A DNA stretch of 32,000 nt from Clostridiales bacterium (GCA_017478485.1 JAFVDI010000036.1:2747-34746), one strand, 5' to 3'. Shown: positions 10,671-32,000, counted from the stretch's first letter. The notes: a model not told the origin generated them from the sequence alone. Made by a program: numbers and translations.

Positions 10671-10682
10671 ACATCATTAAAG

Positions 10683-10960: not shown

Positions 10961-10976
10961 GAAAGGAAGAAACGAT

Positions 10977-12328: not shown

Positions 12329-12336
12329 GTAAGTTT

Positions 12337-12370: not shown

Positions 12371-12386
12371 ATAAAGGAGTTAATGT

Positions 12387-13310: not shown

Positions 13311-13355
13311 GAACCCCTTCCGAGAGGAAAAAGCCAACGGCTTTCACCAGGGTTT

Positions 13356-13409
13356 CAGGGTCTTCCCTGACAAGCAAAATGTGTTTGTGGTACACAAACG
13401 CGATGCTTG
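13356..13409 (+). promoter_or_regulatory. candidate oriT: nested inverted repeats upstream of mobC and the relaxase gene
   Basis: CAGGG/CCCTG (13356-13369). CAAGCA (13371-13376) pairs with TGCTTG (13404-13409), and these enclose GTTTGTG-GTA-CACAAAC (13383-13399). Confidence 0.45.
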
Positions 13410-13457
13410 CTAATACACGGGACATCAAAACTAACAATAAGAAAGGAGATGCGGAAA

Positions 13458-13799
13458 ATGCCCCACAAAAAGACAGAGCGACCAATTCAGATCCACTTTC
13501 GTGTATCCAAAAGTGAGTATGATGCCATCAAAAATAAAGTTGAAAAATCGGGGCTGAGCATGAGCGAATTTGCCAGAAAAACTTTCTTGGATAAGAAAAT
13601 TGTTTCGGCTCCACCTGCCGACTTTCCGGCTCTCATCATAGAGGTAAAAAGAATTGGTGGAAATCTCAACCAGCTCGTCAGAAAACTGAACGCTTTGGGC
13701 ATAGCTCACAGTTCTGAATTGAAAAACTGCGAAACCGAAATCCGAGAAACTGAAAGAATGCTATATCGGACCTTCAGGCCCGGGAAAGGAGATAGCTGA
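13458..13799 (+). CDS. mobC: MobC-family relaxosome accessory protein (RHH)
   Basis: IHFRVSKSEYDAIKNKVEKSGLSMSEFARK ... IGGNLNQLVRKLN is the typical MobC pattern. ATG 13458 lies 9 nt after GGAG. Confidence 0.85.
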   Translation: MPHKKTERPIQIHFRVSKSEYDAIKNKVEKSGLSMSEFARKTFLDKKIVSAPPADFPALIIEVKRIGGNLNQLVRKLNALGIAHSSELKNCETEIRETERMLYRTFRPGKGDS

Positions 13800-15229: not shown

Positions 15230-15291
15230 CTCTTATAGACACTTATCAAGTTTTTTTTACAATATAACGACTGCGAACAAGGAGGGTACAA

Positions 15292-15888
15292 ATGAAGAAA
15301 TCATTATTTGCAATCTTTTTGACTTCAACACTGTTGCTGACAGCATGCAGTACTTCAAATGCAAAAAAAGAATCTGAAGCTACCACAACAGCGTCTGAAA
15401 CTACTACCGAAGTAACAACAACTACAGAATCAGAGACAACGACAACCGAACCGGCTGAAGATGTTATTAAGCCTTCGTTCAAGTCAAGCCTTACTCTGGA
15501 TGACATCAAGAAGGTCGCTCCTGAAGATCTGAGCAACTACGATAAGTTCTGCAATGAGTATTTTTCTGTAACCAAAACATCAGGCAAATACTGTCAGATA
15601 GAAGGTTTGGAAACAGTTACTTTATCTTCCTCTACTGACAAAAACAGAAAAACAGACGCTCAGTTGTTTTTCTTTAAGGCCGGTGCTGATGTCGCAAACA
15701 CTGGAAAGTTCAGTGGTACTGACGGCACATTACACAGCCAAATACCTTTCATTCCACTTTTCTACAATGAAACTAAAGGCTGTCTGGTAGGCTATAGAGA
15801 TGCCATGATCAACGCTCACAAGTTTACCTTTGTCGAAAAGTATACCGATATGATGGTTGAAGTAAGCCCCAGCGAATACGGCTTATAA
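15292..15888 (+). CDS. lipoprotein with a Thr/Glu-rich linker, unknown function
   Basis: Signal peptide with lipobox LLLTAC. RBS AAGGAGGG upstream. Confidence 0.8.
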   Translation: MKKSLFAIFLTSTLLLTACSTSNAKKESEATTTASETTTEVTTTTESETTTTEPAEDVIKPSFKSSLTLDDIKKVAPEDLSNYDKFCNEYFSVTKTSGKYCQIEGLETVTLSSSTDKNRKTDAQLFFFKAGADVANTGKFSGTDGTLHSQIPFIPLFYNETKGCLVGYRDAMINAHKFTFVEKYTDMMVEVSPSEYGL

Positions 15889-15917
15889 TTCTTAAGAAAC
15901 AAATAATAAACTCATTA

Positions 15918-15946
15918 AAAAGCACCCTTCATCGGGGTGCTTTTTT
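15918..15946 (+). terminator. rho-independent terminator
   Basis: AAGCACCC pairs with GGGTGCTT, followed by TTTTT. Confidence 0.8.
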
Positions 15947-15990
15947 AATGCCAAAAAACAAACAAATAACAAAACAAAGGAGGAAGACAA

Positions 15991-17028
15991 ATGGCTATTG
16001 AGAATGAAACAGCCGATCAGATCGTCAGAATGGTCATGCAAGGCAGCGAAGTTGTCTTAAGACTCTCAGGCGAAGCTTCTATGCGAGTAGCGCACATGAT
16101 CTACTCCGCCCTTCAAGGCGATCACACGACCAAAGGCAAGGCTACACTTTGGGAATTCCTGAAATCAGGTAAACCTCAAAAGGTATTCACCGTACCGGAA
16201 GAGTATCTCAAGGCGTTCACCACTGCCAGTAAAAAGTTCGGCTTCCCGTTCGTCATGTTGAAAGACAAAGCGGATAAGAAAGGCATGGTAGACATCATGG
16301 TCTATGCGACTGATGCTTCCAAGGTCAACCGCGTTCTTGAGAACCTTAAGCTTACCGTTAAGCAGGTCGAAACGATCAAGCCTGAGATCCTGTTAGATGA
16401 CGGCGAACTTGTAAAACCGCTGAACATGCAGTTTAAGGTCCCGCTTGAACTCATCGATAACATCCCTAATCCTGAAATGCAGAACAGAACGCTTTATGTT
16501 GAGCTTCAAAAGTATGCAGCTAGGATCAAGGCAAAAGGTCCCGGCTTCATAGAACCTGTCGGTCTTTTATGTAAGCCTGACGGCAGATATGAGATCCTTC
16601 CCGGACAGGGCTCCAAAAGGATCATGGCATTAAGACTTGCCGGTTATAAGGAAGCTGTTGCCGATATCGCGGTCCCGAACAAGGAAAATGTCGAGGTCAA
16701 AGCTGAAAATGTTGAGGAAAAGCCTGCTCAGGAAAGATCTGAAGCTCCCAAGACTCAGGAGAAAAAGGCTCCCGAAAAGCCAAACCCCACCAAAGAAGAG
16801 GGCCAGACCGTAAACCCTACTATGGCCCGAACGTCGAGAGATCCAGCGTCCGGGCAAAACTCCGTCAAGAGATCGAAAAACAAAGAAGACAGAACAATAT
16901 CGGACGATGCTGAAAAGAGACCTTCGGTCCGAAAGAAGTTAGAACAGGCGAAAATCATAGCCGCTGAAAAGCAGGCGGCAAAAGAGCTTGCTAAAGCAAC
17001 AGAAAAGATCATTCCCAAATCGAGGTGA
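15991..17028 (+). CDS. PcfB-family (DUF3801) protein fused to a degenerate ParB/Srx-like domain and a Lys/Glu/Pro-rich tail
   Basis: The N-terminus (QIVRMVMQGSEVVLRLSGEA...FGFPFVMLKD...VDIMVYATDASKVNRVLENL) is PcfB-like. Residues about 146-230 parallel the element's own ParB (VPLELIDNIPNPE ... CKPDGRYEILPGQGSKRIMALRLAGYKEAVADI). Confidence 0.8.
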   Translation: MAIENETADQIVRMVMQGSEVVLRLSGEASMRVAHMIYSALQGDHTTKGKATLWEFLKSGKPQKVFTVPEEYLKAFTTASKKFGFPFVMLKDKADKKGMVDIMVYATDASKVNRVLENLKLTVKQVETIKPEILLDDGELVKPLNMQFKVPLELIDNIPNPEMQNRTLYVELQKYAARIKAKGPGFIEPVGLLCKPDGRYEILPGQGSKRIMALRLAGYKEAVADIAVPNKENVEVKAENVEEKPAQERSEAPKTQEKKAPEKPNPTKEEGQTVNPTMARTSRDPASGQNSVKRSKNKEDRTISDDAEKRPSVRKKLEQAKIIAAEKQAAKELAKATEKIIPKSR

Positions 17029-20094: not shown

Positions 20095-20484
20095 ATGGAA
20101 ATAAACATAAACAAAGACATCAGAGAATATACCGAAGGCGTTTTCTTCGGACTTAACATCCGCCAGCTGATCTGCTCCGGTTGTGCTATTGCTTCTGCCG
20201 TTGGGATCTACTTCGGCATGCGGGAAAAGATATCCCAGGATGCAATTACTTACCTCTGTATAGCCGCTGCTCTGCCTTTTGCTGCGATCGGCTTTATCAA
20301 GTACAACGGCATGCCAATGGAGAAGATCTTCGTGGCATGGTTCAAGGATTGCTTCCTCTGCCCCAGAAAGCTTAATTGCAGGGCCAACAACATCTATAAG
20401 GAAGCGCTTAAGGATTATTTCGATGCAAAAGAAAAGGAGGCTATGAATGCTCAAGAGCATAATGACACTGCTGAAGCAGGATAA
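20095..20484 (+). CDS. PrgI-family (VirB3-like) membrane protein
   Basis: The N-terminus NKDIREYTEGVFFGLNIRQLICSG plus two TM helices is typical of PrgI. It overlaps the virB4 start by 38 nt. Confidence 0.8.
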   Translation: MEININKDIREYTEGVFFGLNIRQLICSGCAIASAVGIYFGMREKISQDAITYLCIAAALPFAAIGFIKYNGMPMEKIFVAWFKDCFLCPRKLNCRANNIYKEALKDYFDAKEKEAMNAQEHNDTAEAG

Positions 20485-22801
20485 GGAGGCTTTCAAGGTC
20501 CCAAGAAGGGTTCAGGACCTCGTTCCAATTAAACGGATCTGGCCTGACGGAATCTTTCAGGTAGGCACGAACAAGTTCGCCAAAACCTGGAAGTTTTCGG
20601 ATATCAACTATCTGGTGGCAAGTGAAGGAGATAAAGAGAACATGTTCCTGCTCTATTCCGACGTTCTCAATTCCTTTGACAGTGCTGCTACGACCAAGAT
20701 CACGGTAAACAACCACAGGCTCAACAAGAAGGACTTCGAGAACTCGATCCTCATGCCGATGAAGCATGACGGCCTTGACGATTACCGTCAGGAGTATAAC
20801 GACATGCTCCTGGAAAAGGCTACCGGTGCTAACGGCATCACTCAGGAGAAGTATATAACCGTGTCCATCAACAAAAGAAGCGTTGAGGATGCGCGAATCT
20901 ACTTCGCCAGGACCGGAGCTGACCTTCAGATGCGTTTTGCTTCTTTAGGCAGCAGGCTTGAAGAACTGGATGCTCTGGAAAAACTTCGTATCCTTCACGA
21001 CTTCTACCGTCAGGGCGATGAGACCACATTCGAGTTCGATATGGCCAAGAGAGCCAAGCTCGGTCATGACTTCCGTGACTATATATGTCCGGATACGATC
21101 GAACGCGGCACGGACTATATCAAGCTCGGTGAGAAATATGTCAGAGTACTGTTTCTCAAGGACTACGGCAACTATATCAGCGATGACACCATTGCCGAGC
21201 TTACCGACATGAACAGAAACCTGATGCTTTCAATTGATGTTCTCTCCGTCCCCACAGATGAAGCGATCCGTGAGGTCGAGAACAAGCTATTAGGCGTTGA
21301 GACCAACATCACCAACTGGCAGAGAAAGCAGAACCAGAACAATAACTTCTCAGCTGTTATCCCATACGATATGGAGTTGCAGCGTAACAAGACAAAGGAG
21401 TTCCTGGCTGACCTCACAACCCGTGACCAGCGAATGATGCTCTGCCTCATCACAATGGCGATCACATCTGAGAGCAAGGAACTGCTTGATCTCGATACCG
21501 AAAGTCTTCAGGCCGTCGCCAAAGGCAGACATTGCCAGATGGCGGTCCTCAAGTGGCAGCAGGCGGACGCGCTCAACATCGTCCTCCCCTTCGGAGTCAG
21601 GAAGATAGACTGTTTCAGGACCCTTAACACGGAATCCCTGGCAGTATTCCTTCCCTTCAAAACGCAGGAAATCATGGACAAAGGCGGGATCTACTACGGC
21701 GAGAACGCTATTTCCCATAACCTTATCATGTGCAACAAGGAGAACCTCTTAAACCAGTCCGCCTTCCTTTTGGGCGTTCCCGGTTCGGGCAAGTCTTTCT
21801 CGGCTAAGGAGCTCATCACCTTCCTTATGCTCAATACGGATGACGACATCCTTATCTGCGATCCTGAGGGCGAGTACGCGCCTCTTGTTGAAGCAATGGG
21901 CCCTGAAATGGGCTCTGTCATTAGGGTTTCGGCCGGCGGAAGAGACAGGCTCAATGCGATGTATATGGTTGACGGCTATGGTGAGAACGACCCTATCGTA
22001 GTTAAGTCACAGTTCATCATGTCCCTTGTTGAGCAGATTGATAAAAAAGGCGTCGGGCCTCAACAGAAGTCCATAATCGACCGCTGTGCCGCAGCCGTTT
22101 ACCGGGATGCCGAGAAAACTAAGTCTTCAGGCGGTCCTGTCCCTACCCTCTGCACTTTCCGTGAGAAGCTCTTGGAACAGCCGGAGCGTGAAGCAAAGCA
22201 GATAGCGTTATCGCTTGAGCTCTTCACTACCGGATCTCTTGATATCTTCGGGCGTGAAAGCAATGTAGATATGGACAAGAGGGTCGTCGTTTTCGATATA
22301 CACGGCTTAGGCAGCCAGCTTAAGCCCACGGGACTTCTTGTCATAACGGACACTATGCTTAACCGAGTAACCCTTAATTGGAAGAAAGGTAAGCGTACAC
22401 ATGTCTTTATCGACGAGTTCCATGTCGTATTCGAAAACGAGTTCTCGGCACAGTTCTTTAACTCTGCCTGGAGACAGTTCCGTAAAAGGAACGCCTACCC
22501 TACCGCCATCACGCAGAATGTCGAGTATCTTTTGGACTCCATTCAGGCATCCACGATGCTTTCCAACTCGGAGTTCGTAATAATGCTCAACCAGGCAGCA
22601 TCGGACAGGGCCAAGCTTGCAAAGCTTTTGAACATCTCCGATATTCAGATGCGTTATATCACTAACGCGCCTGCAGGCACGGGTCTTATCAAGTACGGTG
22701 CCGCTCTCGTACCTTTCGTTAATAAGTTCAATAAGGATACGAAGCTCTACCACTTGATGACTACAAAGCCATCAGATAACGGAAAGTTTGCAAGCGGTTA
22801 A
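20447..22801 (+). CDS. virB4: VirB4-family conjugal transfer ATPase
   Basis: Walker A LLGVPGSGKS and Walker B HVFIDEFH. 784 aa. RBS GGAGG 6 nt upstream. Confidence 0.93.
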   Translation: MLKSIMTLLKQDKEAFKVPRRVQDLVPIKRIWPDGIFQVGTNKFAKTWKFSDINYLVASEGDKENMFLLYSDVLNSFDSAATTKITVNNHRLNKKDFENSILMPMKHDGLDDYRQEYNDMLLEKATGANGITQEKYITVSINKRSVEDARIYFARTGADLQMRFASLGSRLEELDALEKLRILHDFYRQGDETTFEFDMAKRAKLGHDFRDYICPDTIERGTDYIKLGEKYVRVLFLKDYGNYISDDTIAELTDMNRNLMLSIDVLSVPTDEAIREVENKLLGVETNITNWQRKQNQNNNFSAVIPYDMELQRNKTKEFLADLTTRDQRMMLCLITMAITSESKELLDLDTESLQAVAKGRHCQMAVLKWQQADALNIVLPFGVRKIDCFRTLNTESLAVFLPFKTQEIMDKGGIYYGENAISHNLIMCNKENLLNQSAFLLGVPGSGKSFSAKELITFLMLNTDDDILICDPEGEYAPLVEAMGPEMGSVIRVSAGGRDRLNAMYMVDGYGENDPIVVKSQFIMSLVEQIDKKGVGPQQKSIIDRCAAAVYRDAEKTKSSGGPVPTLCTFREKLLEQPEREAKQIALSLELFTTGSLDIFGRESNVDMDKRVVVFDIHGLGSQLKPTGLLVITDTMLNRVTLNWKKGKRTHVFIDEFHVVFENEFSAQFFNSAWRQFRKRNAYPTAITQNVEYLLDSIQASTMLSNSEFVIMLNQAASDRAKLAKLLNISDIQMRYITNAPAGTGLIKYGAALVPFVNKFNKDTKLYHLMTTKPSDNGKFASG

Positions 22802-22915
22802 TACCTTCTTAATTCCATTCCATGCCTTGCATGGTAGTATAAGTTAAGAACTTCGACGTACCATGTACCCTACCTTTCAAATATCCTCTTATTGGTATGT
22901 CACATCACCCCCTAA

Positions 22916-22945
22916 CCCCTTGTCACAAGTTGACAAGGGGTTTTT
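22916..22945 (+). terminator. strong rho-independent terminator after virB4
   Basis: CCCCTTGTCA (22916-22925), loop CAAGT, TGACAAGGGG (22931-22940), then TTTTT (22941-22945). Confidence 0.85.
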
Positions 22946-22967
22946 ACATGAGCACGGCAAGTTTTCG

Positions 22968-22996
22968 TTGATTTGTTTTGTTCAAAAACATATACT
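22968..22996 (+). promoter_or_regulatory. sigma-A type promoter for the PLD-ATPase cassette
   Basis: TTGATT (22968-22973), 17-nt spacer, TATACT (22991-22996). It ends about 32 nt upstream of the ATG at 23029. Confidence 0.55.
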
Positions 22997-23028
22997 TTTA
23001 TTTATTGAACTATTTGACAGGAGGCGTT

Positions 23029-25071
23029 ATGGAAAACAGTCAAGTATCCATATTTGATTTGTCTGGAACTGTAAAAGAGAAGAGTTTACAGGCGGTTTTA
23101 TGCAAATATGAAGAAATCTACGACACGAACTTTGAAGAATTATTTACTGGCTTTGATGACATCAAGGTTTTAACCTTCTCATATGGTATGGGTTTTATTA
23201 ACAAGACCTTAAAACTGTTTAGGACAGCGGAAATTATTCTCGGGTCGGAGTTCCGTGTTAAATATGATATCAAGGAAGTCATGGCCGCCCAAGAAGATGA
23301 CGCCCCATTTATGACTTTTCAGGCTTCATGTCTAAGAGGAATAAGGCGTAACAAGTATCTTGTTGATAGGATTCTTAATGATGAAGTCTCCGTTTATCTG
23401 GCAAAAGAAATTATTGCTCATGAAAAGTTGTATATCCTTACAGCCGAGAACGGATCCACTAGAGTAATTTGCGGCTCGGCAAACTTTTCGGATAAAGCTT
23501 TTGAAGGCGGAAGTCAAAGAGAAAGCATTCTTGTGTTCAATAATGATCCCGGTGCATATGAATGGGCTATGAATGAATTCGACATGGTAAAGGATATGAG
23601 CACACAAGAAATAATCAAAAGTGCCATATACTACAGTGAAACCGGTCTTCCAAAAGATGAAAAAGATGAAATCAAGGAAATACCAATAGTTGCCGAAGCC
23701 ATTGCCAAAGAAGCCGGAATCATTCTTGAATCCGAAAGTGTTGTCTCTGATGATGAATACCAGTTTGCAGTAGATGTAAGCAACTTCAAGAATAGAATTA
23801 AAGGTGTTGTGAATGCGGTCGCAAAGAAAGACGCGATAGGTAAGGTTCTGATAACACCAATTAAAACTAATGATCTTATAAGATCATTCCGTAAAAAGGT
23901 TGTTAAGGAGGCTGAAATCCGAAAAGTACACCCGGAGTTTTCTGTAGATCTTTTGAATCATAAAGCGGTACTTAACGACAAAGAATTCAATCTGGATCCA
24001 TCTCAAGAAATGGTAAAGGCGGATATTGAGGCTTTAGACAGGTTCTTTTCAGGATATGACAGATTTCTTGGAAATGTCGAAAATACAAAGAATCAGTTTT
24101 TTCTTCTGATGAATTATATGTTTTTGACTCCCTTTGTCGGAAAGGTCCGTAACACAGCATATAGGCATAAGTATGCTTCTATCTACTACCCTGTTTTCGC
24201 CGTTCTTGTTGGAGACAAAAACTCTGGAAAATCCTCTTTTGTTAAGGTTATCCAAAAGTTTATGTTCTTAAAGGATCTGCAGTCATTCACAGGAGAACAC
24301 TGGACTAAGACAACAGTACGCGGACTTATGCAGAATGTGTCCGAAATACCGATTTTAATCGATGATATCAGCAGAACAAGGTTTAAGGAAAATGCTGATG
24401 AGATCATTAAAGAGGATGACAATATAAATCAATCGGGTATTACGACCATCCCTTCTTTTGTTCTGACATCAAACGACATCACTACAAGTATTGAGCCGGC
24501 TCTAAAAAAACGAATGCTATATATAACTTCCGATTTGAAGTTGGATAATGTAAATGCGGCACACATGCACAAACTTGTTCATGACAATATCGAAAATCTG
24601 AACGGTTCATTCTACTGTAAGTACTTGAGTAAGATGATTGACAGAGTTAATGATTTGCTTGAATTGATCAAATCAGACAAAGCAGAAGACGAGAACTGGC
24701 ATCCTGATCTCTTTAAGATTTCATCCGAAACAATTTGCGAAATCGTAAGCGAAGCCTGTGGTACAACCCCGAAATACATGAGAAAAGTCACTTTTGAAGA
24801 TTATTTCGGTGTAGATACTGCCATGACACGCGATATCAAAGCAGAGATCATTACAAACTACCAGCACAACAAAAGAGCTTTTGTTATTGACCGTAAACGC
24901 AACAAGTTGGTCTATACTCCAGGTGAAAAACAATATGAAGCAAGACGATATGCCGATGCCCTTCCCGAATTTCTCGAGGCAAAAGTGCAAAATAACTATA
25001 TACTAATGGAGTTGGATAAAGCAGAAGAATTCTTTGGAATTAAGTTCAAGAGAGGTTTTCGGTTTAGATAA
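23029..25071 (+). CDS. fusion protein: N-terminal single-HKD phospholipase-D-family nuclease domain plus C-terminal SF3 (D5/P4-type) P-loop NTPase (680 aa)
   Basis: ATG 23029 after AGGAGG. HKD motif H131-E-K...GSAN152 (AHEKLYILTAENGSTRVICGSANFS, nt 23419-23484). Walker A GDKNSGKS (24211-24234), Walker B ILIDD (D445/D446), motif C FVLTSN (N482), followed by ALKKRMLYI. Confidence 0.8.
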   Translation: MENSQVSIFDLSGTVKEKSLQAVLCKYEEIYDTNFEELFTGFDDIKVLTFSYGMGFINKTLKLFRTAEIILGSEFRVKYDIKEVMAAQEDDAPFMTFQASCLRGIRRNKYLVDRILNDEVSVYLAKEIIAHEKLYILTAENGSTRVICGSANFSDKAFEGGSQRESILVFNNDPGAYEWAMNEFDMVKDMSTQEIIKSAIYYSETGLPKDEKDEIKEIPIVAEAIAKEAGIILESESVVSDDEYQFAVDVSNFKNRIKGVVNAVAKKDAIGKVLITPIKTNDLIRSFRKKVVKEAEIRKVHPEFSVDLLNHKAVLNDKEFNLDPSQEMVKADIEALDRFFSGYDRFLGNVENTKNQFFLLMNYMFLTPFVGKVRNTAYRHKYASIYYPVFAVLVGDKNSGKSSFVKVIQKFMFLKDLQSFTGEHWTKTTVRGLMQNVSEIPILIDDISRTRFKENADEIIKEDDNINQSGITTIPSFVLTSNDITTSIEPALKKRMLYITSDLKLDNVNAAHMHKLVHDNIENLNGSFYCKYLSKMIDRVNDLLELIKSDKAEDENWHPDLFKISSETICEIVSEACGTTPKYMRKVTFEDYFGVDTAMTRDIKAEIITNYQHNKRAFVIDRKRNKLVYTPGEKQYEARRYADALPEFLEAKVQNNYILMELDKAEEFFGIKFKRGFRFR

Positions 25072-25674
25072 ATGATTGGTTACGCAAAAATAAGACCAAA
25101 TGATGAAAAGGAATCTGTGTCGGCGCTTTTTCAGCCCTATCGCTGCGAAAAAATCATAATTGACGACTCACACAATCCTAAAGCCGAGGATAGCATTTGG
25201 CAAAGATTAAAACAGGAAATCTTCTCGTCGGATGATCGTGATTTGATAGTCGATTCATTGTTTAGTCTTGGAAAAACCGGTCGTGAAATCTCCAAAGAAC
25301 TGGAGTGGGCATATTCTAACAATATAAAATTGTATATCATCACCGTCCCTTCAACTTTTGAGAACCAACCCTTTGCCAATAAACTGCTTGTTGAGTTGTA
25401 TAGGGATAAAGCCTCTTTAGAGCGTAAAAATGTTGCAGTAAGGCAAGCCGAGGGTCAAAGAAGCGCTACGGAAGCAAATGTTAGATTTGGACGTCCAACC
25501 ACACCATATCCTGCTAATTGGGAGAAAGATTATGCTGCATGGCGCAATAAAGAATTGACAACAAATGACTTTATGGAAAGGTCCAAACTCAAAAAAGGTA
25601 CATTTTATAACCTGATAAAGCGTTATAAAAATGAACTTAGTACCCAGAATCAAGACACAAAAGAATTAGTTTAA
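25072..25674 (+). CDS. serine-recombinase (resolvase/invertase) fold protein lacking the catalytic residues, with a C-terminal HTH
   Basis: The start abuts the upstream stop (TAA 25069-25071, ATG 25072). MIGYAKIRPNDE replaces GYARVSTxxQ, and LFSLGK replaces LDRLGR. The E-helix (ERKNVAVRQAEGQR...VRFGRP) and HTH (GTFYNLIKRYK) are retained. Confidence 0.75.
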   Translation: MIGYAKIRPNDEKESVSALFQPYRCEKIIIDDSHNPKAEDSIWQRLKQEIFSSDDRDLIVDSLFSLGKTGREISKELEWAYSNNIKLYIITVPSTFENQPFANKLLVELYRDKASLERKNVAVRQAEGQRSATEANVRFGRPTTPYPANWEKDYAAWRNKELTTNDFMERSKLKKGTFYNLIKRYKNELSTQNQDTKELV

Positions 25675-25696
25675 ATCACACAAAATGTTACCTAAG

Positions 25697-25724
25697 GCCC
25701 TCGGGATTGACCCGGGGGCTTTCT
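25697..25724 (+). terminator. rho-independent terminator closing the two-gene cassette
   Basis: GCCCTCGGG (25697-25705), loop ATTGA, CCCGGGGGC (25711-25719) with one G-U pair, then TTTCT. Confidence 0.7.
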
Positions 25725-25770: not shown

Positions 25771-27420
25771 ATGCCACAAATCAATAAAGTGGAACGCGAC
25801 CACAATATCAGGCAGGTATCGCGTTTGGATGACATAAAACCTGCTACAGAGAAATCAATAACAAAAGTTGTCCCGATTATTGATCAAAAATCGGGACAAT
25901 CTGATCTTACGGCAACTATGGATGCCGCAAGGAGAACCGGTATATCCGCCATAAGGCAGGCAAGGTCACTCTCAGGCAGTTCAGATAAAACCGAAGATCA
26001 GGAAGCGATAGACAAGCTTGAAGCCTCCGCCCGTAACGCTTCCAGAGAATCCGCGATTGCTGCCAAAGAGTCTCTCAGAAGACAGATAAAAAGAAAAAAG
26101 CCGGATATCAAGACGAGTGACCGATCGATCCATAAAGCTGACCGCATTAGAAAAAGCTCAATTGAAGCTTCGCAAGCAATCGTCAAAAGCGCGACAGAAG
26201 TAGCAAAGCAGGCTGCTATTGCTTCTCATAAGGCTGTTTCAGTGAGAAGGACCGAGCAAATGGCTAAGAAGTCCGCTGAATGGGTCAAAAGGATCGTCAG
26301 GGGCATAATCGAAAGCACCAAACAGCTCTTCAGTACATTGGGCGCCGCCGCTGTGCCTCTTATGCTGATACTTGTCCTTGCAGGCATGGTCGGCGGTATC
26401 GTCGCATCCTCTTTCGGCATTTTCTTTGTCGGTAATCAGTCTGGCAATAAAACAAGATCTCTTCAGGATGTCATTCTAAGTATCAACTCGGAATACAACA
26501 ATAAGATCGAAAGCATAAAAAAGAAAGTCTCTCATGATGAGCTCACTACAGAAGGTTATCAGGCACCCTGGTCTGATGTTCTCTCAGTCTATGCCGTCTA
26601 TGTCACGACAAAGACTGAAGATGCGACAGATGTGGTTCATATCACGGACGCCAATGTAAATGTACTTCGAGACATATTCTGGAAGATGAACTCAGTGACT
26701 TACACAACCGAAAAGGTTACCGAAAAGAAAAAGGTCCCGGTGCTAGACGAGAAAGGCCAACAAAAGAAAGATGCAGACGGAAACCCAGTCTATACCGAAA
26801 AGAAGATAACCAAGACCATTCTTCATATCAAGACAACTCACAAAACAGCAGAACAGCAAGCCGCTGCCCTCTCCTTCAATGTAAAACAGCTAGCTGAGCT
26901 AAAAGAACTCCTAGATGTTAAGAACGCTTCACTATGGGCTCAGATCCTCAAAGGCATTGGTTCAGGATCGAATGAACTGGTAAACCTCGCTTTATCGCAG
27001 CTTGGCAACAAAGGCGGCGAAAAGTACTGGAGATGGGCCGGGAGCAGCAAGCGAATTGCCTGGTGCGCCCTTTTCGTATCTTGGTGTGCTGATAAGACCG
27101 GGCTTAGAGCTTCCGGTCAGATCCCTTACTTCTCTTTTGTCGGTGACGGTGTCCACTGGTTTAAGACAAAAGGAAAATGGATCAAAGGCTCTGATGTCAA
27201 CAGTACCAACTATGACAAGCTCATCCGTCCGGGCATGCTCATCTTCTTCGACTGGCTTGAAGACGGCAAGCGAGATGGTCACGGCGATCATGTGGGAATT
27301 GTCACTAAGGTCGCAAATGGTCGATTTTATACGGTTGAAGGTAACAAGGACGATAAAGTCGCAGAAGGTTCTTACCCTGTTGGCAGCAAAAGTATACTTG
27401 GATTTGGAATAGTTGGATAA
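25771..27420 (+). CDS. conjugation-associated cell-wall hydrolase with a C-terminal CHAP domain
   Basis: ATG 25771 lies 9 nt after AAAGGAG. TM segment AAAVPLMLILVLAGMVGGIV. CHAP motifs IAWCALFVSWC (Cys) and GHGDHVGIV...TVEGN (His). Confidence 0.88.
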   Translation: MPQINKVERDHNIRQVSRLDDIKPATEKSITKVVPIIDQKSGQSDLTATMDAARRTGISAIRQARSLSGSSDKTEDQEAIDKLEASARNASRESAIAAKESLRRQIKRKKPDIKTSDRSIHKADRIRKSSIEASQAIVKSATEVAKQAAIASHKAVSVRRTEQMAKKSAEWVKRIVRGIIESTKQLFSTLGAAAVPLMLILVLAGMVGGIVASSFGIFFVGNQSGNKTRSLQDVILSINSEYNNKIESIKKKVSHDELTTEGYQAPWSDVLSVYAVYVTTKTEDATDVVHITDANVNVLRDIFWKMNSVTYTTEKVTEKKKVPVLDEKGQQKKDADGNPVYTEKKITKTILHIKTTHKTAEQQAAALSFNVKQLAELKELLDVKNASLWAQILKGIGSGSNELVNLALSQLGNKGGEKYWRWAGSSKRIAWCALFVSWCADKTGLRASGQIPYFSFVGDGVHWFKTKGKWIKGSDVNSTNYDKLIRPGMLIFFDWLEDGKRDGHGDHVGIVTKVANGRFYTVEGNKDDKVAEGSYPVGSKSILGFGIVG

Positions 27421-27597: not shown

Positions 27598-27656
27598 CAA
27601 GAAGATAGTAGAATTTGTTTAGTAATAAAAACAAATTTGGCCAAGGAGGAATAAAA

Positions 27657-29396
27657 ATGTCTAAACTAGTAGTTGATCAGAAAACGGTTTATGAATTGTT
27701 TGGCAACAAAAATGCATACTTCTTGATTCCCGATTATCAACGTCCCTATGCGTGGGATGAAGTTGAATGTCAAACCTTATGGAATGATATTTTCTCCTTT
27801 GCAATACCAGAAAACGACTATTCAAAATTCAATAATGATGACGAATATTTCTTAGGTCCAATCGTTACATTTGACAATAATAATAAAAAAGAAGTAATTG
27901 ATGGCCAACAAAGATTAACTACTCTGTTGCTACTTCTACGCGCTTTTTACTGTTCATTTGGTACAATGGCAGACGAAAATTCTCTTGCTACAAAACAAAT
28001 GATAGAAGCCTGCATCTGGAAGACGAACGAGTTTAACAAGCCCGATATGAATGTTTTGAAGATAGATTCTGAAGTAGCTTCAGATGAGCACAAGGAAGAA
28101 TTCCTCTCCATTTTAAAAACTGGAATCGTTGAGGACAAGATGAAGAGCAATTATGCTGTTAACTATCGGTTCTTTCAGAAGAAGATTGAGGAGTTCCTTC
28201 ACACATACCCAACATATTATCCCTATTTGCCGATACGAATAATGAAGAATTGCATCTTACTTCCGATTGAAGCAGAATCTCAGGATACTGCTCTGCGTAT
28301 CTTCTCAACCCTTAACGACAGAGGAAAGCCATTGTCTGATGCTGATATTTTTAAAGCCCAGTTGTATAAACACTATTCTCTTAAGGGAGAGAAGGATACT
28401 TTCATCAAACGTTGGAAGGCGTTGGAATCTAAGTGTAATGAAATCTATCATCCTATATCTGGTACTCCTATGGACGAGGCATTTACTCGTTATATGTATT
28501 ATGAGAGAGCCAAGATGGGAATAAAATCTTCTACCACAGAAGCTTTGAGAAAGTTCTATGAAAAAGACAGTTATGCTCTGTTAAAGAATGATTTAACATT
28601 CGACAACATTGTGGATCTTACAGATTTCTGGGAGTCTGTTTCGAAACAGGACGAAGAGAGATTCTCCGATGATGTGCTGAAAAAGCTGTTTATCTTGAAT
28701 TATGCTCCAAATGGTATGTGGACATACTTTGTTTCAGTCTATTACTTAAGCAATAAAGACAGAGGCGGATTGCTTGAAGAAGGGGCATTCCTTAGTTTTC
28801 TCGAGAAAACCATTGCTTTCATATGGACATATGCGGTAACCAATCCAGGCGTTAACTCTCTAAGAACCCCGGTATACGCAGAAATGATAAGTGTTGTAAA
28901 ACACGATAATGTTGATTTTGCGGATTATCTGTTTGATGAGAAAACAACGCGAACATCCTTTGATAACTATGTTTTTACAAACAACAGAGGTATTACAAAG
29001 TCAATGTTAACATGGTGGGCTTATCATAATAAGGATCAGAGTCTGATCCCTCTTGATACTACATTGGAAATAGAACATATTTATGCCAAAAATCGTTTTG
29101 AAAATGAGAAGTCTTTAAGCAATGCTGCTGTTATTGAAAAACTTGGTAATAAGTCTCTTCTGGAAAAGAGAATCAACATTCGTGCATCAGATTATAGATT
29201 CAACGATAAGAAAAAATATTATCAGGGGTTTGAAGGTTCCAGAGGATACAAGCCAGGAACTTGTATTTCTGATTTAAAATGTCTTGCTAACGCAAAGGAG
29301 AATTTTGAGGAAAAAGATATCAACAATAGAACTAAAGAGATCTTAGATGCTTTTTTTGAGTATTTAAAGAGTAATAGTTTGATTGCTTTAGCATAA
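27657..29396 (+). CDS. GmrSD-like DUF262/DUF1524 protein (putative modification-dependent type IV restriction enzyme)
   Basis: ATG 27657 lies 7 nt after AAGGAGG. DUF262 motifs IPDYQRPYAW and DGQQRLTT (27900-27923). C-terminal His-Me finger-like LEIEHIYAKN ... LGNKSLLEKRIN (H474 at 29076-29078). Confidence 0.85.
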   Translation: MSKLVVDQKTVYELFGNKNAYFLIPDYQRPYAWDEVECQTLWNDIFSFAIPENDYSKFNNDDEYFLGPIVTFDNNNKKEVIDGQQRLTTLLLLLRAFYCSFGTMADENSLATKQMIEACIWKTNEFNKPDMNVLKIDSEVASDEHKEEFLSILKTGIVEDKMKSNYAVNYRFFQKKIEEFLHTYPTYYPYLPIRIMKNCILLPIEAESQDTALRIFSTLNDRGKPLSDADIFKAQLYKHYSLKGEKDTFIKRWKALESKCNEIYHPISGTPMDEAFTRYMYYERAKMGIKSSTTEALRKFYEKDSYALLKNDLTFDNIVDLTDFWESVSKQDEERFSDDVLKKLFILNYAPNGMWTYFVSVYYLSNKDRGGLLEEGAFLSFLEKTIAFIWTYAVTNPGVNSLRTPVYAEMISVVKHDNVDFADYLFDEKTTRTSFDNYVFTNNRGITKSMLTWWAYHNKDQSLIPLDTTLEIEHIYAKNRFENEKSLSNAAVIEKLGNKSLLEKRINIRASDYRFNDKKKYYQGFEGSRGYKPGTCISDLKCLANAKENFEEKDINNRTKEILDAFFEYLKSNSLIALA

Positions 29397-29412
29397 TAAT
29401 ATGGTGAAAACA

Positions 29413-32000
29413 ATGGGTAAGTTATCAGAATATGAAGTTGAAGAGATGTTCATAAACAAGCTGGAAAGCATTGGTTATGATTACATCGAATTAAATAATT
29501 ATACAGATGTGCTTAACAACTTTAGGTCGCAGCTGTGTAAGCTAAATGCTACAAAACTCATTGAGAAGAAAGGCATCGCCGAGTTGTCTCAAAAGGAGTT
29601 TGAGCGTCTTCTGATATATGTAGACAATAAAACTGTTTATGAATCAGCTAAGATTCTAAGAGACAAATATATCCTTCAGCTTGATAATGGTGAAACTGTT
29701 TATTTGGAGTTTTTTACACCTGATTCTACTCGTAATACTTATCAAGTTGCTCATCAGATAACAATGGATCCTGAACACAAGGATGATGTTGTCTATAAGA
29801 ACAGATATGACGTCACAGTATTCGTTAACGGTTTACCATTGGTACAGATAGAACTTAAAAGACCCGGCGTTGAGATTAACGAGGCGGTTAATCAGATTAA
29901 CAGATATCGCAAATTCTCTTTCAAAGGACTCTTTCATTATCTTCAATTATTTGTAGTATCGAATTCTGTCCAGACAAAATACTTCTGCAATGAAAATGAG
30001 ATGTTAAATGGTCAGCGAAGACCTATTCTCAAGAGCTTAGTATTCTTCTGGACAGACGAAAACAATGACAGAATCAATGATCTATCTGATTTCACTTCGG
30101 ATTTCTTCAGGAAGACATTTCTTACCGATATTATTTTCAAATATATGGTAATTAAAACTACCGAAGATACATTGATGGTAATGCGACCATATCAAATTTA
30201 TGCAGTCCAAGCCGCAAAAAAGAGAGTGCTTGAGGTTAATAAAGACGGATTTATCTTCGCTTGTACTGGTTCAGGAAAAACACTAACATCTTTTAAGCTG
30301 GCACAGTTACTGAGAGATGAAAACGCGGTAGATAGAGTTATATTCCTCATTGACCGCAAAGACTTAGATGACCAGACCATAGATGAATATAATTCGTTTG
30401 AGAAGGATTGTGTTGATAGAACCACAAACACTTACGCTCTGATCAATCGTTTGCGCGACAAATCACAGAAACTAATTGTTACCACAATACAAAAGCTTGC
30501 CAAGGCATCAAATAACAGTAAGTTCGATGAATTGCTGGAAAGCATGCGTAATGACAAAGTCGTTTTTATCATTGATGAATGCCATAGATCTCAGTTCGGC
30601 AAGATGCATGCTGATATCGCTCGCCGCTTTGATAATGCCAACTATATCGGATTCACTGGTACACCTATTTTTAAGGAAAACAAAGGTAGCAATAATCAAA
30701 CAACAGCTGATCTCTTTTATGCCGGAGAAAATCTTGATTCGTGTCTGCATAAATATATGATCAAAAATGCAATAGCGGATGGAAATGTATTGAAATTTTC
30801 CGTCGAATACCAAAGATCAATTCTAGTTAAAAATGTTCAAGCAAAAGGTATTGATCCCGATAGGCTTGATGATCCTGAATACTGTCGGATACATAATGTG
30901 GATATAAATTCTTTGTATCATGACAAACAGAGAATAAGAAATATAGCTGAGCATATTTTTAAGAATCATCAGATACATGTTCATCCTCAAGGCGAGAGTG
31001 TATATACAGCCATGTTTGCTGTAGATCAAATACAAACGCTCGGAATGTATTATAAAGAGTTCAAACGACTTAATGATGAAGCTCCTGAAGATAAGAAACT
31101 CAGGATAGCGGCCATATTTACTTATCAAGCTAATGAAGATGTTGATGAAGATGAAGGTATGGATGAACACTCCCAAGAGTTATTAGACTCATGCATAGAT
31201 GATTACAACGACTTATTTGGAACATCATTCAGTACGGAAACTTTTGACTCATATCGAAAAGACATACAAAAACGCTTGAAACAAAAAGAACTTCCACAAG
31301 TAGATCTTTTGCTTGTAGTTAATATGTTCCTTACCGGGTTTGATGCTAAACCTTTAAATACGCTATATCTTGACAAAAACCTTATTTGGCACTCACTGCT
31401 TCAAGCATATAGCAGAACAAACCGTGTCGATAAAGCATCCAAACAGTTTGGACAAATCATCACATATCGTAATATAAAAAAGGCTCAGGACGATGCTCTA
31501 AAACTCTTCTCAGGTGACGGCAATCCGGATGAGTATCTTCTCAACAGTTATGAATACTATACAGAGGAGTGGAGAACAAAAACAGGCGAATTGATGAGGA
31601 TCGCACCGACAGCTTCGGAAGCTGGACATCTTCAATCAGAGGATGATATCAGAATGTTTGTTGTAGCTTTTAGAGCAGTTTCAAAAACACTCGCTATTTT
31701 GAAAACCTTCTCAAAGTTCGACTGGAAGGATCTTTCGATAGTACTTAGCGAAGATGAGTACGAAGCATATAAAAGTTGGTACTTATATTTCTACGACATC
31801 TTAAAGAAAGAACGTGAAACTGAAAAAGTTCCAGTCCCGGTTGATGTCGACTTTGACATTGAGCTGATAAGAACTGACAAGATCAACGTAGTTTATATCC
31901 TTAACCTTCTCAAAGAGGTCAATCGTAAGAATCCCGAAGAAATGCGACGTTCTGCAGATCTTATCCTTCGTGAAATAGAGCGTTCTGACAATGAAGCACT
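29413..32000 (+). CDS. hsdR: type I restriction enzyme R subunit (HsdR), 3' end truncated by the window edge
   Basis: I translated the frame by hand and it is open from 29413 (alternative start 29401) to the window end. N-terminal nuclease region RYDVTVFVNGLPLVQIELKRPG. Helicase motif I ACTGSGKT, motif II IIDECH (30574-30585), and also FLTGFDA and LLQAYSRTNR. Confidence 0.92.
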   Translation, partial: MGKLSEYEVEEMFINKLESIGYDYIELNNYTDVLNNFRSQLCKLNATKLIEKKGIAELSQKEFERLLIYVDNKTVYESAKILRDKYILQLDNGETVYLEFFTPDSTRNTYQVAHQITMDPEHKDDVVYKNRYDVTVFVNGLPLVQIELKRPGVEINEAVNQINRYRKFSFKGLFHYLQLFVVSNSVQTKYFCNENEMLNGQRRPILKSLVFFWTDENNDRINDLSDFTSDFFRKTFLTDIIFKYMVIKTTEDTLMVMRPYQIYAVQAAKKRVLEVNKDGFIFACTGSGKTLTSFKLAQLLRDENAVDRVIFLIDRKDLDDQTIDEYNSFEKDCVDRTTNTYALINRLRDKSQKLIVTTIQKLAKASNNSKFDELLESMRNDKVVFIIDECHRSQFGKMHADIARRFDNANYIGFTGTPIFKENKGSNNQTTADLFYAGENLDSCLHKYMIKNAIADGNVLKFSVEYQRSILVKNVQAKGIDPDRLDDPEYCRIHNVDINSLYHDKQRIRNIAEHIFKNHQIHVHPQGESVYTAMFAVDQIQTLGMYYKEFKRLNDEAPEDKKLRIAAIFTYQANEDVDEDEGMDEHSQELLDSCIDDYNDLFGTSFSTETFDSYRKDIQKRLKQKELPQVDLLLVVNMFLTGFDAKPLNTLYLDKNLIWHSLLQAYSRTNRVDKASKQFGQIITYRNIKKAQDDALKLFSGDGNPDEYLLNSYEYYTEEWRTKTGELMRIAPTASEAGHLQSEDDIRMFVVAFRAVSKTLAILKTFSKFDWKDLSIVLSEDEYEAYKSWYLYFYDILKKERETEKVPVPVDVDFDIELIRTDKINVVYILNLLKEVNRKNPEEMRRSADLILREIERSDNEA

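Follow-up and report, generated by a model that had tools for sequence, protein, structure and literature searches.

A fixed fusion of a single-HKD PLD domain and an SF3-like ATPase is a candidate ATP-dependent defence nuclease of ICEs and plasmids

The ATP-dependent restriction and defence enzymes catalogued so far draw on SF1/SF2 helicases, ABC/OLD ATPases, and AAA+ rings of the McrB/BrxL type; the hexameric motors of the SF3 type known elsewhere serve to replicate viruses and plasmids. NgoAVII and CglI require an NTPase, and the NTPase of Mokosh is a helicase. In Azaca (ZacABC) and Mokosh, cleavage of DNA by the PLD nuclease needs the associated NTPase, and PLD nucleases form a covalent histidine intermediate (bioRxiv 10.1101/2025.07.10.664194). 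The BrxL-HKD variants of type 1 BREX, in which a ring-forming AAA+ ATPase is fused to an HKD endonuclease, function in defence (PMC12839542). Here, we describe a gene within a 32,000-nucleotide stretch of DNA from a Clostridiales bacterium (the window) whose product joins an HKD nuclease domain of the PLD type to an SF3-like ATPase (PLD-ATPase).

The gene occupies positions 23029..25071 on the plus strand and encodes 680 aa, as the preliminary description had it; the assignment draws on the open reading frame, Pfam matches, an alignment of homologues, and a structural model. The product is identical to MBR1907110.1 from a Clostridiales MAG, which is recorded under the name ‘hypothetical protein’. 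The start codon is an ATG at 23029, and an RBS (GGAGG, 23017-23021) lies just 5′ of it. A TTG at 22978, taken as the start in an ORF listing, was rejected as a mere upstream extension because homologues start at the equivalent of MENSQ. Direct reading of the N-terminus revealed no hydrophobic, signal-like stretch, in agreement with the earlier assertion that the protein carries no signal peptide.

The N-terminal part (23128..23598, plus strand; residues ~34-190) is a single-HKD PLD domain of the NgoFVII/BfiI/SauUSI restriction-enzyme type, as assigned from Pfam, fold matches, and secondary structure. The Pfam models PLDc_2 (28.9 bits; cut-off 27) and RE_NgoFVII (24.2 bits; cut-off 23.8) both passed their gathering thresholds and matched 55 and 53 of 71 family members, respectively, while weak matches to Tyr-DNA_phospho were detected in 3 of the 71. 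Foldseek searches matched this part of the structural model to R.NgoAVII (4rct; E 3e-5), SauUSI (7clg), BfiI (2c1l), and Tdp1 at probabilities of ~1.0, with the matches to Tdp1 being weaker than those to the restriction-type PLD nucleases. The threshold-passing Pfam scores, their recurrence across the family, and the fold matches together bear out the PLD-like character originally proposed for this domain. The catalytic motif AHEKLYILTAENGSTRVICGSANFS (H131-x-K133 ... G149-S-A-N152; 23419..23484, plus strand), delimited from the family alignment, has H131, K133, and GSAN149-152 at the residues first noted, and each chain reads directly as having one HxK...GSxN unit. H131 and K133 are each present in 130 of 133 aligned members and N152 is present in 129 of 133. 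The canonical HxK(x)4D aspartate is not conserved in this alignment (position 138 is K, S, E, or T), and the GSxN lies 10 residues further on versus 6 in the canonical arrangement.

The C-terminal half is an AAA+/SF3-like ATPase with Walker A, Walker B, and sensor-1 motifs and a trans-acting arginine finger. Its P-loop core (24184..24534; residues 386-502), delimited by conservation, fold matches, and alignment to phage P4 alpha, contains Walker A GDKNSGKS (24211-24234; residues 395-402), Walker B ILIDD (24352-24366), motif C/sensor-1 FVLTSN (24457-24474; residues 477-482), and arginine finger R495 (24511-24513) at the end of ALKKR (residues 491-495), all on the plus strand. These positions agree with those given before except that ILIDD, while present, spans residues 442-446 rather than 441-446. 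K401, N482, and R495 are invariant (133/133), the D445/D446 position is acidic in nearly all of the 133 aligned members, and K461, which is located on a helix between motifs B and C, is nearly invariant. Both the PLD and the ATPase catalytic sets are intact in 128 of 133 members. The motif residues are thus conserved among homologues, and since PLDc_2 and RE_NgoFVII also pass their cut-offs, the motifs are not attributable to chance.

An AlphaFold model built from the 133-sequence alignment reached a pLDDT of 87.2 and a pTM of 0.81 (a run with five sequences gave a pLDDT of 46). Foldseek searches of the PDB matched residues ~270-680 of the model to Cch, JCV LTag, ASFV PrimPol, D5, MPXV E5, B19V NS1, PriRep1, and NrS-1; the top matches were almost all SF3 helicases, ahead of other AAA+ classes, and the best-matching SF3 structures were of the DUF927/Cch, P4 alpha, and poxvirus D5 group (PDB 5dgk, 8hwc, and 8iqh). 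Fold matches in BFVD were to DUF927/P4/D5 primase-helicases of phages and other viruses. Under profile alignment, Walker A, Walker B, motif C, and the arginine finger line up with their counterparts in P4 alpha, at an hhalign probability of only 33%. No significant match to curated SF3 models (Pox_D5, DUF927, VapE-like, DUF5906, and RNA_helicase) was obtained, the one match for the window protein being VapE-like at E=0.058, and among the 71 members matches to SF3 models were sporadic (DUF927, RNA_helicase, and DUF5906, as single matches at E~2e-3). A profile search against PDB sequences yielded marginal matches only (Zucchini/MitoPLD, 0.0068; Cch, 0.0077; Msp1, 0.011). The newest Pfam release places the C-terminal part in a family of its own, PF27394 (‘Aq_aa27’), for which precomputed matches are listed for the window protein and all of its close homologues. 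The SF3-like nature claimed for the ATPase at the outset is therefore upheld by motifs, spacing, fold, and the P4 alpha register, but membership at the level of sequence is weak, and we count this against the explanation that we favour below.

The region between the two catalytic domains (23599..24183, plus strand; residues 191-385), delimited by conservation and the model, had been regarded as a linker of about 200 aa. It is more than a linker: the model shows it as helical, with a loop of low confidence at 236-248, a small beta-sheet at 303-320, and a pair of long helices at 326-379 that run into the ATPase core, and the family alignment has nearly invariant P302 and R374 here; the region may be a collar or oligomerisation region. 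Within the ATPase, the spacing of motifs B and C resembles that of P4 alpha. The interval between them is modelled with no beta-hairpin. The ATPase could be an assembly switch instead of a translocase because the model has only a short loop (469-475) where a DNA-translocating beta-hairpin would be expected. The chain ends in a helical bundle and a small alpha/beta domain (24535..25068, plus strand), both recognised from the model (pLDDT >90) and from an alignment to Cch that spans 405 columns in Foldseek. The small domain (residues ~598-680) is predicted to consist of a helix, a beta-hairpin, and a helix, an arrangement reminiscent of a winged helix. Bundle and small domain together are a putative DNA-binding end, placed in the chain where Cch and P4 alpha have their C-terminal domains.

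The family became apparent only through an exhaustive search of cluster representatives; a word-indexed homology search gave 4 close homologues. PLD-ATPase matched 954 cluster representatives, 267 of them at E<=1e-30, and these are mostly 650-700 aa in length, align end to end, and are nearly all full length. The fusion of PLD and ATPase is a fixed architecture over hundreds of 50%-identity clusters and lineages. Its first characterisation as an unusual fusion was hence correct in one sense, in that the literature searched contained no description of a PLD-SF3-type fusion, but the fusion is not rare. The idea of swappable N-terminal effectors on the ATPase module found no support: outliers either keep the PLD domain or are fused to Band_7 or MatE and are likely chimeric gene calls. 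NCBI names for family members are ‘restriction endonuclease PLD domain-containing protein’, ‘phospholipase D family protein’, and ‘hypothetical’; on these names, the family is not an annotated replication initiator, a possibility that the preliminary description had raised. PADLOC-DB v2.0.0 returned no significant match (the best, to ZacB at E=6e-4, was confined to the PLD portion), its matches to JetA and AriA were dismissed as noise, and NCBIfam gave no match. Since the PADLOC 2023 and NCBIfam models do not detect PLD-ATPase, the family has probably escaped surveys of defence genes in the gut mobilome.

Family members are widespread in gut and rumen Clostridia and were also identified on plasmids of acetic-acid bacteria, Arcobacter, Thermus, and Thermotogae. 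The loci are spread over ICEs, plasmids, and chromosomal islands and have genes for restriction, BREX, and toxin-antitoxin systems in their surroundings; all identified carriers of known type are ICEs or plasmids, and many copies reside in long chromosomal contigs. No relatives were detected in GenBank phages or in the IMG/VR viral collections. This absence is neutral for a role in defence and shows a bias toward plasmids and ICEs.

In the window, the module occupies a slot between VirB4 and a CHAP hydrolase within the transfer operon of an ICE of gut Clostridia. The last T4SS gene before it encodes a VirB4-like conjugation ATPase of the CD1110 family (20447..22801, plus strand) and is followed by a terminator-like hairpin (22914..22947, plus strand) with a 12-bp perfect stem, a 5-nt loop, and then TTTTT (dG -19.3 kcal/mol, z -4.5; none of 200 shuffled sequences was as stable), which may insulate the PLD-ATPase module from the T4SS operon. 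A promoter-like site, TTGATT-17-TATACT (22968..22996, plus strand), precedes the RBS; the evidence for this site is weak, with the promoter scan overall not exceeding shuffled sequence (11 sites versus 8.6 expected). DNA homology with the related element L001 starts at 22980, and the GC content of the module is 0.38 versus 0.46-0.51 in the upstream T4SS genes.

Downstream, the ATG of a partner gene (25072..25674, plus strand; 200 aa) directly abuts the PLD-ATPase stop codon. The partner has a resolvase-like fold and a conserved C-terminal HTH (GLKKGTFYNLIK), and Pfam Resolvase matches it over profile positions 29-143 only. Compared with serine recombinases, the position of the catalytic serine (YxRVSTxxQ) is R, K, or S in seven aligned partners, and the DRLxR arginine motif is replaced by SLGK. 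From these residues and the gene junction, the partner is predicted to be a catalytically dead, resolvase-like HTH protein that is translationally coupled to PLD-ATPase. A second stable hairpin (25694..25722, plus strand; dG -21.6 kcal/mol, z -3.1), followed by UUUCUCAU, is a possible terminator of the pair. With its own promoter-like site and flanking hairpins, the pair reads as an insulated, autonomous two-gene unit. Beyond it lie the CHAP-domain cell-wall hydrolase of the conjugation apparatus (25771..27420; start as in the gene call of L090), a GmrSD-type (type IV) restriction endonuclease as a context gene (27615..29396), and the type I restriction subunit HsdR (29401..32000, running past the end of the window), all on the plus strand; HsdM and HsdS come after HsdR in the identical contig L090. 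Carriage by a transposon or cassette was considered and rejected: no direct or inverted repeats were detected on the flanks, and related elements share no conserved non-coding ends. Neither an integrase, iterons, nor terminal direct or inverted repeats were detected flanking the PLD-ATPase gene.

Loci of relatives were collected with a nine-sequence alignment as the query. Neighbourhoods are not conserved, with gene neighbours varying over 90 loci, and the partner was identified at +1 in 10 of these, all within one family clade. In some other clades, a WYL or AraC-type regulator lies directly upstream in place of the resolvase-like partner. Among related elements, the slot is followed by BREX in L001 and L002 and by type I R-M in L005, and in L073 the PLD-ATPase gene is located between a WYL regulator and brxA-brxB-brxC. 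The 138 immediate neighbours at ~85 loci include 7 that match type IV REase models, 5 that match type I REase models, and 5 that match PbeA models; these are raw counts of sets that may overlap, 5 of the neighbours being SauUSI-like. Type I MTases account for 3 of the 138, and WYL, GmrSD, and ParE proteins also occur. Overall, recurring neighbours are SauUSI-like proteins, HsdM, WYL regulators, and AraC-type HTH proteins; plasmid copies are found among TA systems, and many neighbours are unrelated or housekeeping genes. No cognate methyltransferase was consistently linked to the family among the neighbours at these ~85 loci.

From its domains and genomic context, we infer a function for PLD-ATPase, and we lean toward its being a stand-alone, oligomerisation-gated, ATP-dependent PLD nuclease that is carried by the ICE as defence cargo. 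The domains, the model, the fixed architecture, the autonomous unit, the defence neighbours, and the precedents for nuclease-NTPase pairs all support a role in defence, and the effector role suggested at the outset fits the genomic contexts. The weak sequence-level SF3 membership, the short loop at 469-475, the lack of a significant PADLOC-DB or NCBIfam match, the many unrelated or housekeeping neighbours, and the lack of a consistently linked methyltransferase count against it. A lone HKD is not enough for a PLD active site, and two chains would therefore have to pair, as in Nuc and BfiI, while ATP would be hydrolysed only between adjacent subunits through the arginine finger. The half-site nuclease and the trans-arginine ATPase would thus share one switch: oligomerisation, which would probably yield a hexameric ring of the SF3 type on DNA and would start both activities together. 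Such a hexamer could accommodate as many as three PLD dimers. Once loaded on foreign DNA, the ring would translocate along or unwind it, and cleavage by the paired PLD domains would pass through a covalent phosphohistidine intermediate and need no metal ions. The choice of target would be set by the C-terminal domain, and in the clade that has it, the dead-resolvase HTH partner may act as a DNA-binding adaptor, a transcriptional regulator, or an antidote. We put forward more tentatively, as a possibility that we would not yet back, that the family is a new class of stand-alone immune nuclease in which an SF3 hexameric motor has been turned on invaders, the HKDs pair on ring assembly, and swappable partners (dead resolvase, WYL, or AraC) set expression or targets.

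The partner and regulator genes could also be read as the restraining half of a toxin or addiction module that serves abortive infection or keeps the element stable, in which PLD-ATPase would degrade self-DNA, be held in check by the partner or a WYL/AraC protein, and be freed upon infection or element loss. The position of plasmid copies inside TA-system clusters, the translational coupling of the partner, the interchangeability of regulator-like partners, and the lack of a linked methyltransferase are consistent with such a module. However, ~70 of 90 loci have no recognisable small partner or regulator adjoining, so PLD-ATPase must be tolerable alone, and the partner resembles a DNA-binding protein more than a typical antitoxin; we consider this alternative unlikely. 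Doubtful to us as well is the proposal that PLD-ATPase is an effector of competition between elements, directed not at phage but at plasmid or conjugative DNA, whether incoming or resident, and excluding the rivals of its carrier. That typed carriers are all ICEs or plasmids and that none were found in the phages or viral contigs searched would suit this role, as would the nature of the substrate, given that SF3 helicases load onto ssDNA and forks and that conjugation delivers DNA of this kind. Yet most of 80 genomic loci have no conjugation genes within 8 kb, and the proposal departs from the defence nuclease that we favour only in its target, which sequence data cannot settle.

Two further alternatives concern replication or mobilisation and DNA repair. 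PLD-ATPase might be a replication or mobilisation initiator of a cryptic replicon or ICE, an analogue of HUH-SF3 Rep/NS1 proteins that couples a PLD nickase (via covalent phosphohistidine-DNA) to an SF3 helicase. The order of nuclease then SF3 domain is shared with those proteins, the fold matches include NS1 and PriRep1, catalysis by PLD nucleases goes through a covalent histidine intermediate (10.1101/2025.07.10.664194), and mobile elements carry the family. Nevertheless, the carrier plasmids come with separate annotated replication initiators and the ICE with its own relaxase and Toprim protein, the gene is flanked by none of the integrase, iteron, or repeat features noted above, neighbourhoods are variable with many copies in long chromosomal contigs, and restriction endonucleases are the nearest relatives of the PLD domain. 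An initiator is thus disfavoured, and we regard it as very unlikely. Motor-assisted removal of protein-DNA crosslinks, such as relaxase adducts, by a Tdp1-like DNA-repair enzyme would account for the weak Tyr-DNA_phospho matches (3/71), the presence of Tdp1 among the fold matches, and the position of the window gene in a conjugation gene cluster, but is scarcely credible when restriction-type PLD nucleases match better than Tdp1, most family members lie away from conjugation genes, and the Tdp1 chain has two HKD-like halves where PLD-ATPase has one.

If a defence nuclease of the kind favoured here is confirmed, an SF3-motor nuclease would join the ATP-dependent restriction and defence enzymes, and the shared oligomerisation step would explain how a potentially lethal nuclease stays silent. 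The family is compact, with one gene of ~2 kb, and its slot in an ICE transfer operon beside GmrSD and type I R-M would indicate that conjugative elements bundle immunity with transfer.

Like the DUF927/Cch, P4 alpha, and D5 SF3 helicases, PLD-ATPase has a C-terminal domain after the ATPase and a similar motif spacing; however, those helicases carry primase or origin-binding N-termini and replicate their own elements, whereas the N-terminus of PLD-ATPase is a nuclease, and sequence-profile similarity between them is marginal, with Pfam separating the ATPase as PF27394. Parvovirus NS1/Rep and CRESS-virus Rep also join a nuclease at the N-terminus to an SF3 helicase within a single chain, but their nuclease is an HUH tyrosine nickase and they are replication initiators with defined origins, whereas PLD-ATPase has a PLD domain and no origin-like features were found at its locus.

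Among restriction enzymes, the ATP-dependent type IV enzyme SauUSI (7clg) resembles PLD-ATPase in having an N-terminal single-HKD PLD domain, a central ATP motor, and a C-terminal DNA-recognition part; its PLD domains must pair for cutting, as we propose for PLD-ATPase, and SauUSI-like genes are frequent neighbours of the family. SauUSI differs in its two-lobed SF2 helicase motor and in target recognition by DUF3427, whereas PLD-ATPase has a single-core AAA+/SF3-like ATPase whose trans arginine finger implies assembly into a ring or oligomer, and the two have no sequence relationship beyond the PLD domain. R.NgoAVII and BfiI (4rct and 2c1l) provide the closest solved PLD domains, and these enzymes and R.CglI likewise have one HKD per chain; their covalent-histidine, metal-independent chemistry is probably shared by PLD-ATPase. 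In R.NgoAVII and R.CglI, however, the NTPase is a separate N-protein of another family, whereas that of PLD-ATPase is fused, and R.NgoAVII, R.CglI, and BfiI have a B3-like DNA-binding domain and a cognate methyltransferase, neither of which accompanies PLD-ATPase.

Azaca and Mokosh would share their functional logic with PLD-ATPase as we interpret it, and a weak PADLOC match links it to ZacB, although both systems use other NTPases, Azaca is multi-subunit, and neither system has a significant sequence match past the PLD core. Members of the family adjoin or sit within BREX loci, where BrxL-HKD offers a further parallel. BrxL is MCM/Lon-related, carries a C-terminal HKD (as an HRD variant), and is part of a multi-gene system, whereas PLD-ATPase combines the reverse domain order with an SF3-like ATPase in a stand-alone gene.

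The gene for the PLD-ATPase ends at 25071 and was listed automatically from a TTG codon at 22978. However, an ATG at 23029 is preceded by GGAGG 8 nt upstream and agrees with the N-termini of all close homologs, and we therefore take it as the start of a 680-residue protein, the length assumed in a preliminary description of this sequence. The motifs placed there were recovered at the same residues: H131-E-K133 and G149-S-A-N152 of a PLD nuclease, and GDKNSGKS (395–402), ILIDD (442–446), FVLTSN (477–482), and ALKKR (491–495) of an ATPase. An identical sequence is deposited in GenBank as MBR1907110.1, annotated ‘hypothetical protein’, from a Clostridiales MAG.

Two Pfam models scored above their cut-offs of 27 and 23.8 bits, PLDc_2 with 28.9 and RE_NgoFVII with 24.2, respectively. 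The ATPase part gave only a sub-threshold match in the local Pfam copy (VapE-like, E = 0.058), and no NCBIfam model matched the protein. PADLOC returned a weak match, confined to the PLD part, to ZacB, a subunit of Azaca, which is one of two PLD-type nuclease-NTPase systems in bioRxiv 10.1101/2025.07.10.664194. A word-indexed search identified four homologs (55–78% identity) annotated with the C-terminal family PF27394 (‘Aq_aa27’); the local Pfam copy did not contain this model, and the assignment is that of the precomputed annotation of these homologs. An exhaustive search, run against 1.84 billion cluster representatives, yielded 954 matches at E ≤ 1e-3 (599 at ≤ 1e-10 and 267 at ≤ 1e-30), the majority of which were 650–700 residues long and aligned end to end.

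In an alignment of 133 family members (22–78% identity), K401, N482, and R495 were invariant, H131 and K133 were each present in 130, N152 was present in 129, and nearly all had acidic residues at D445/D446. Of the 133 members, 128 retained both catalytic sets, and the aspartate of the canonical HxK(x)4D was not conserved in this alignment. PLD models matched 55 of 71 sampled members, while the SF3-type models DUF927, RNA_helicase, VapE-like, and DUF5906 matched only isolated members (E ~ 2e-3).

An AlphaFold model built from the 133-sequence alignment (pLDDT 87.2, pTM 0.81) comprised a PLD domain (residues ~34–190), a middle region made up of helices and a single disordered loop, a small sheet with two long helices (303–379), a five-strand P-loop core (390–501), and a helical bundle followed by a small alpha/beta C-terminal domain. 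The top Foldseek match in the PDB was SCCmec Cch (E = 1.9e-6, 405 columns), followed by R.NgoAVII (3e-5), SauUSI, the JCV large-T helicase, and ASFV PrimPol, and then by vaccinia D5, MPXV E5, B19V NS1, BfiI, Tdp1, PriRep1, and NrS-1. Rpt, RFC, spastin, RuvB, ORC, p97, and MCM, which belong to other AAA+ classes, ranked lower. Among viral models, the best matches were DUF927, P4-type, and D5-type primase-helicases. A profile-profile comparison with phage P4 alpha and its close relatives, for which the template alignment was very shallow, gave a low probability of 33% (E = 4.5e-4) but aligned Walker A, Walker B, motif C, and the arginine finger with their counterparts. At the expected position of the translocation hairpin the model has only a short loop, although the spacing is similar to that of P4 alpha.

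The PLD assignment is thus secure, as the above-threshold profiles and the R.NgoAVII, SauUSI, and BfiI fold matches bear out. The preliminary assignment of the ATPase to SF3 held for fold and motif layout but not at the sequence level, where profile matches were sub-threshold; the ATPase is AAA+/SF3-like in the former respects and a separate family in the latter. We consider the combined architecture, a PLD nuclease joined to an SF3-like ATPase, very probably correct.

The window is occupied by a Firmicutes conjugative element encoding ParA and ParB, a TQ-ester adhesin with its sortase, DUF5688 and Toprim/DUF3991 proteins, NikA/MobC, a relaxase, DUF3801, a VirD4 coupling protein, a TrbC-like pilin, PrgI, a 278-residue protein whose counterparts in two related loci (L090 and L001) are called TrbL_2, and a CD1110-type VirB4. 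The 1513-residue surface protein, which has TQ ester-bond and SpaA-like domains and is followed by the sortase (the two at 4961–10312), is presumably a mating adhesin. VirB4 is followed by the PLD-ATPase and a 200-codon gene, after which come genes for a CHAP hydrolase and a GmrSD type IV enzyme. The window closes within HsdR, which begins at ~29401 and, because it continues past the window end, is missing from the automatic ORF list. The CHAP gene, listed from TTG 25732, most likely starts at ATG 25771 (549 residues, as called in L090), upstream of which lies the ribosome binding site AAAGGAG. HsdR was identified through L090, a contig 99.99% identical to the window in which HsdM and HsdS come next; GmrSD and the type I R-M system lie at 27615–32000 in the window and at 14629–22043 in L090. 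Because related elements carry a BREX locus at this position, these observations suggest a defense-cargo hotspot downstream of the T4SS operon.

Within this region, the PLD-ATPase and the 200-codon gene show signs of being an autonomous unit. GC content falls to 0.38 at the PLD-ATPase, compared to 0.46–0.51 in the upstream T4SS genes, and stays below ~0.40 to the window end save for ~0.46 within CHAP. A perfect 12-bp hairpin followed by T5 lies after virB4 (22914–22947; dG -19.3 kcal/mol, z -4.5), and a second stable hairpin follows the 200-codon gene (25694–25722; dG -21.6 kcal/mol). The promoter-like site upstream of the PLD-ATPase is weak, as the promoter scan performed no better than on shuffled sequences. 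A 16-nt inverted repeat (94% complementary) between the putative -10 region (22982–22997) and the coding sequence (24112–24127) is probably due to chance.

The start codon of the partner gene (25072–25674) immediately abuts the PLD-ATPase stop codon. In its product, similarity to a resolvase catalytic-domain model begins only at profile position 29. Alignment of seven partners with a bona fide recombinase showed R in place of the catalytic serine in the window and K or S there in relatives, loss of the DRLxR arginines, and a conserved C-terminal HTH (GLKKGTFYNLIK). Together, these features identify the partner as a catalytically dead, DNA-binding resolvase derivative.

Close homologs are likewise found between VirB4 and CHAP together with this partner; BREX comes next in L001 and L002, and a type I R-M system in L005. 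A one-genome-per-species scan added 80 loci (28–34% identity), predominantly from gut and rumen Clostridia but also from Kiritimatiellia, Spirochaetota, Verrucomicrobia, Alistipes, and Ligilactobacillus. Screening by tblastn identified 12 plasmid copies, annotated as PLD-domain proteins, in Acetobacter, Komagataeibacter, Arcobacter, Athalassotoga, and Thermus. In the five regions inspected, one per genus, the gene stood alone, beside TA systems, ParAB, or helicase/methylase genes, and the Thermus copy was cut by a transposase. That copy, on Thermus oshimai pTHEOS02 (3280–5005), retains only the ATPase half as a 370-codon ORF, immediately preceded by a transposase gene in the opposite orientation, and was probably disrupted by an insertion sequence. 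Neither a set of 50,697 phage records nor IMG/VR yielded a family member.

When ORFs were called in all 90 loci and clustered, one neighbor alone, the dead-resolvase partner, kept a constant position. It lies at +1 in 10 loci that form a single clade of the family tree, the gap to the PLD-ATPase gene being +1, 0, -4, -13, or -17 nt; all other neighbors vary. Different clades of the family carry an upstream AraC/SoxS-like or WYL gene as the DNA-binding gene instead of the downstream dead resolvase. AraC/SoxS-type HTH proteins lie directly upstream in four loci (gaps 15–19 nt), encoded on the same strand and ~251 residues long (L023, L043, L082, and L087). WYL regulators of ~327 residues, also on the same strand, are encoded by the adjacent upstream gene in L016 and L073 (11–12 nt away) and by the second gene upstream in L081 and L082. 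In L073, from a Candidatus Scatosoma MAG (6982–16911), a 30%-identical member occupies the slot between a BrxR-like WYL regulator (gap 11 nt) and BrxA, BrxB, and BrxC, and may be an accessory BREX nuclease.

Type IV restriction models matched 7 of 138 immediate neighbors; SauUSI-like PLD-SF2-DUF3427 proteins accounted for five, HsdM and WYL for three each, and GmrSD and ParE for two each. Among recurrent clusters, named by PDB sequence matches, SauUSI-like helicases were found in six loci and HsdM in four. The SauUSI-like neighbors take two forms, one of ~1050 residues (PLD, SF2 helicase, and DUF3427) and one of ~750 residues with a helicase and no PLD, often after a gene of ~105–118 codons (L032, L046, L047, L048, and L079; L014, L042, L048, L060, and L068). 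Two different PLD/ATPase nucleases are thus often adjacent. Counting recurrent clusters alone, R-M, BREX, or WYL genes occur within six genes in at least 20 of the 90 loci. Some neighbors are housekeeping genes, and the neighborhoods carry a qualitative defense-island signature.

The architecture, the conservation of both catalytic sets, the constancy of the fusion, the signs of an independent transcription unit, and the genomic neighborhoods are observed directly; the mechanism that follows is deduced from what is established for the two protein families. A PLD active site requires two HKD motifs, and the single-HKD enzymes Nuc and BfiI work as dimers; AAA+/SF3 ATPases hydrolyze ATP at subunit interfaces via a trans arginine finger, for which the invariant R495 is the candidate. 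Both activities would therefore depend on self-association. Under the most economical model, the protein would assemble on foreign DNA into an SF3-type ring or some other higher oligomer and thereby pair its PLD domains, and the paired complex would cut DNA during translocation or unwinding. Given the short loop at the translocation-hairpin position, the ATPase might instead serve as an assembly switch only. The C-terminal domain and the clade-specific partners (dead resolvase, WYL, and AraC) are candidates for governing target choice or expression. No methyltransferase that would spare self DNA is consistently linked to the gene across loci.

A role as a defense nuclease is probable and is the one we favor. 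A toxin/addiction or abortive module is a plausible alternative in view of the coupling of the partner gene and of plasmid contexts rich in TA systems, yet the majority of loci lack any partner; action in competition between mobile elements would differ from defense only in its target. Taken jointly, these three roles are quite likely to include the correct one. A Rep-like PLD nickase with an SF3 helicase is appealing on chemical grounds and, if true, would represent a new category, but is disfavored because carrier plasmids encode separate initiators, flanking repeats or origin-like features are absent, and neighborhoods are unconserved. A Tdp1-like repair enzyme is a marginal prospect.

The protein belongs to none of the systems catalogued in PADLOC, and we found no description of a PLD/HKD-SF3 fusion in the literature, of which our coverage was incomplete; the new family PF27394 indicates that curators have already noticed the C-terminal domain. 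Functionally, the protein appears to belong with ATP-dependent PLD nucleases and the nuclease-NTPase defense class that includes SauUSI, NgoAVII/CglI, Azaca, Mokosh (bioRxiv 10.1101/2025.07.10.664194), and BrxL-HKD (PMC12839542), whereas its type of motor otherwise serves the replication of plasmids, phages, and viruses.
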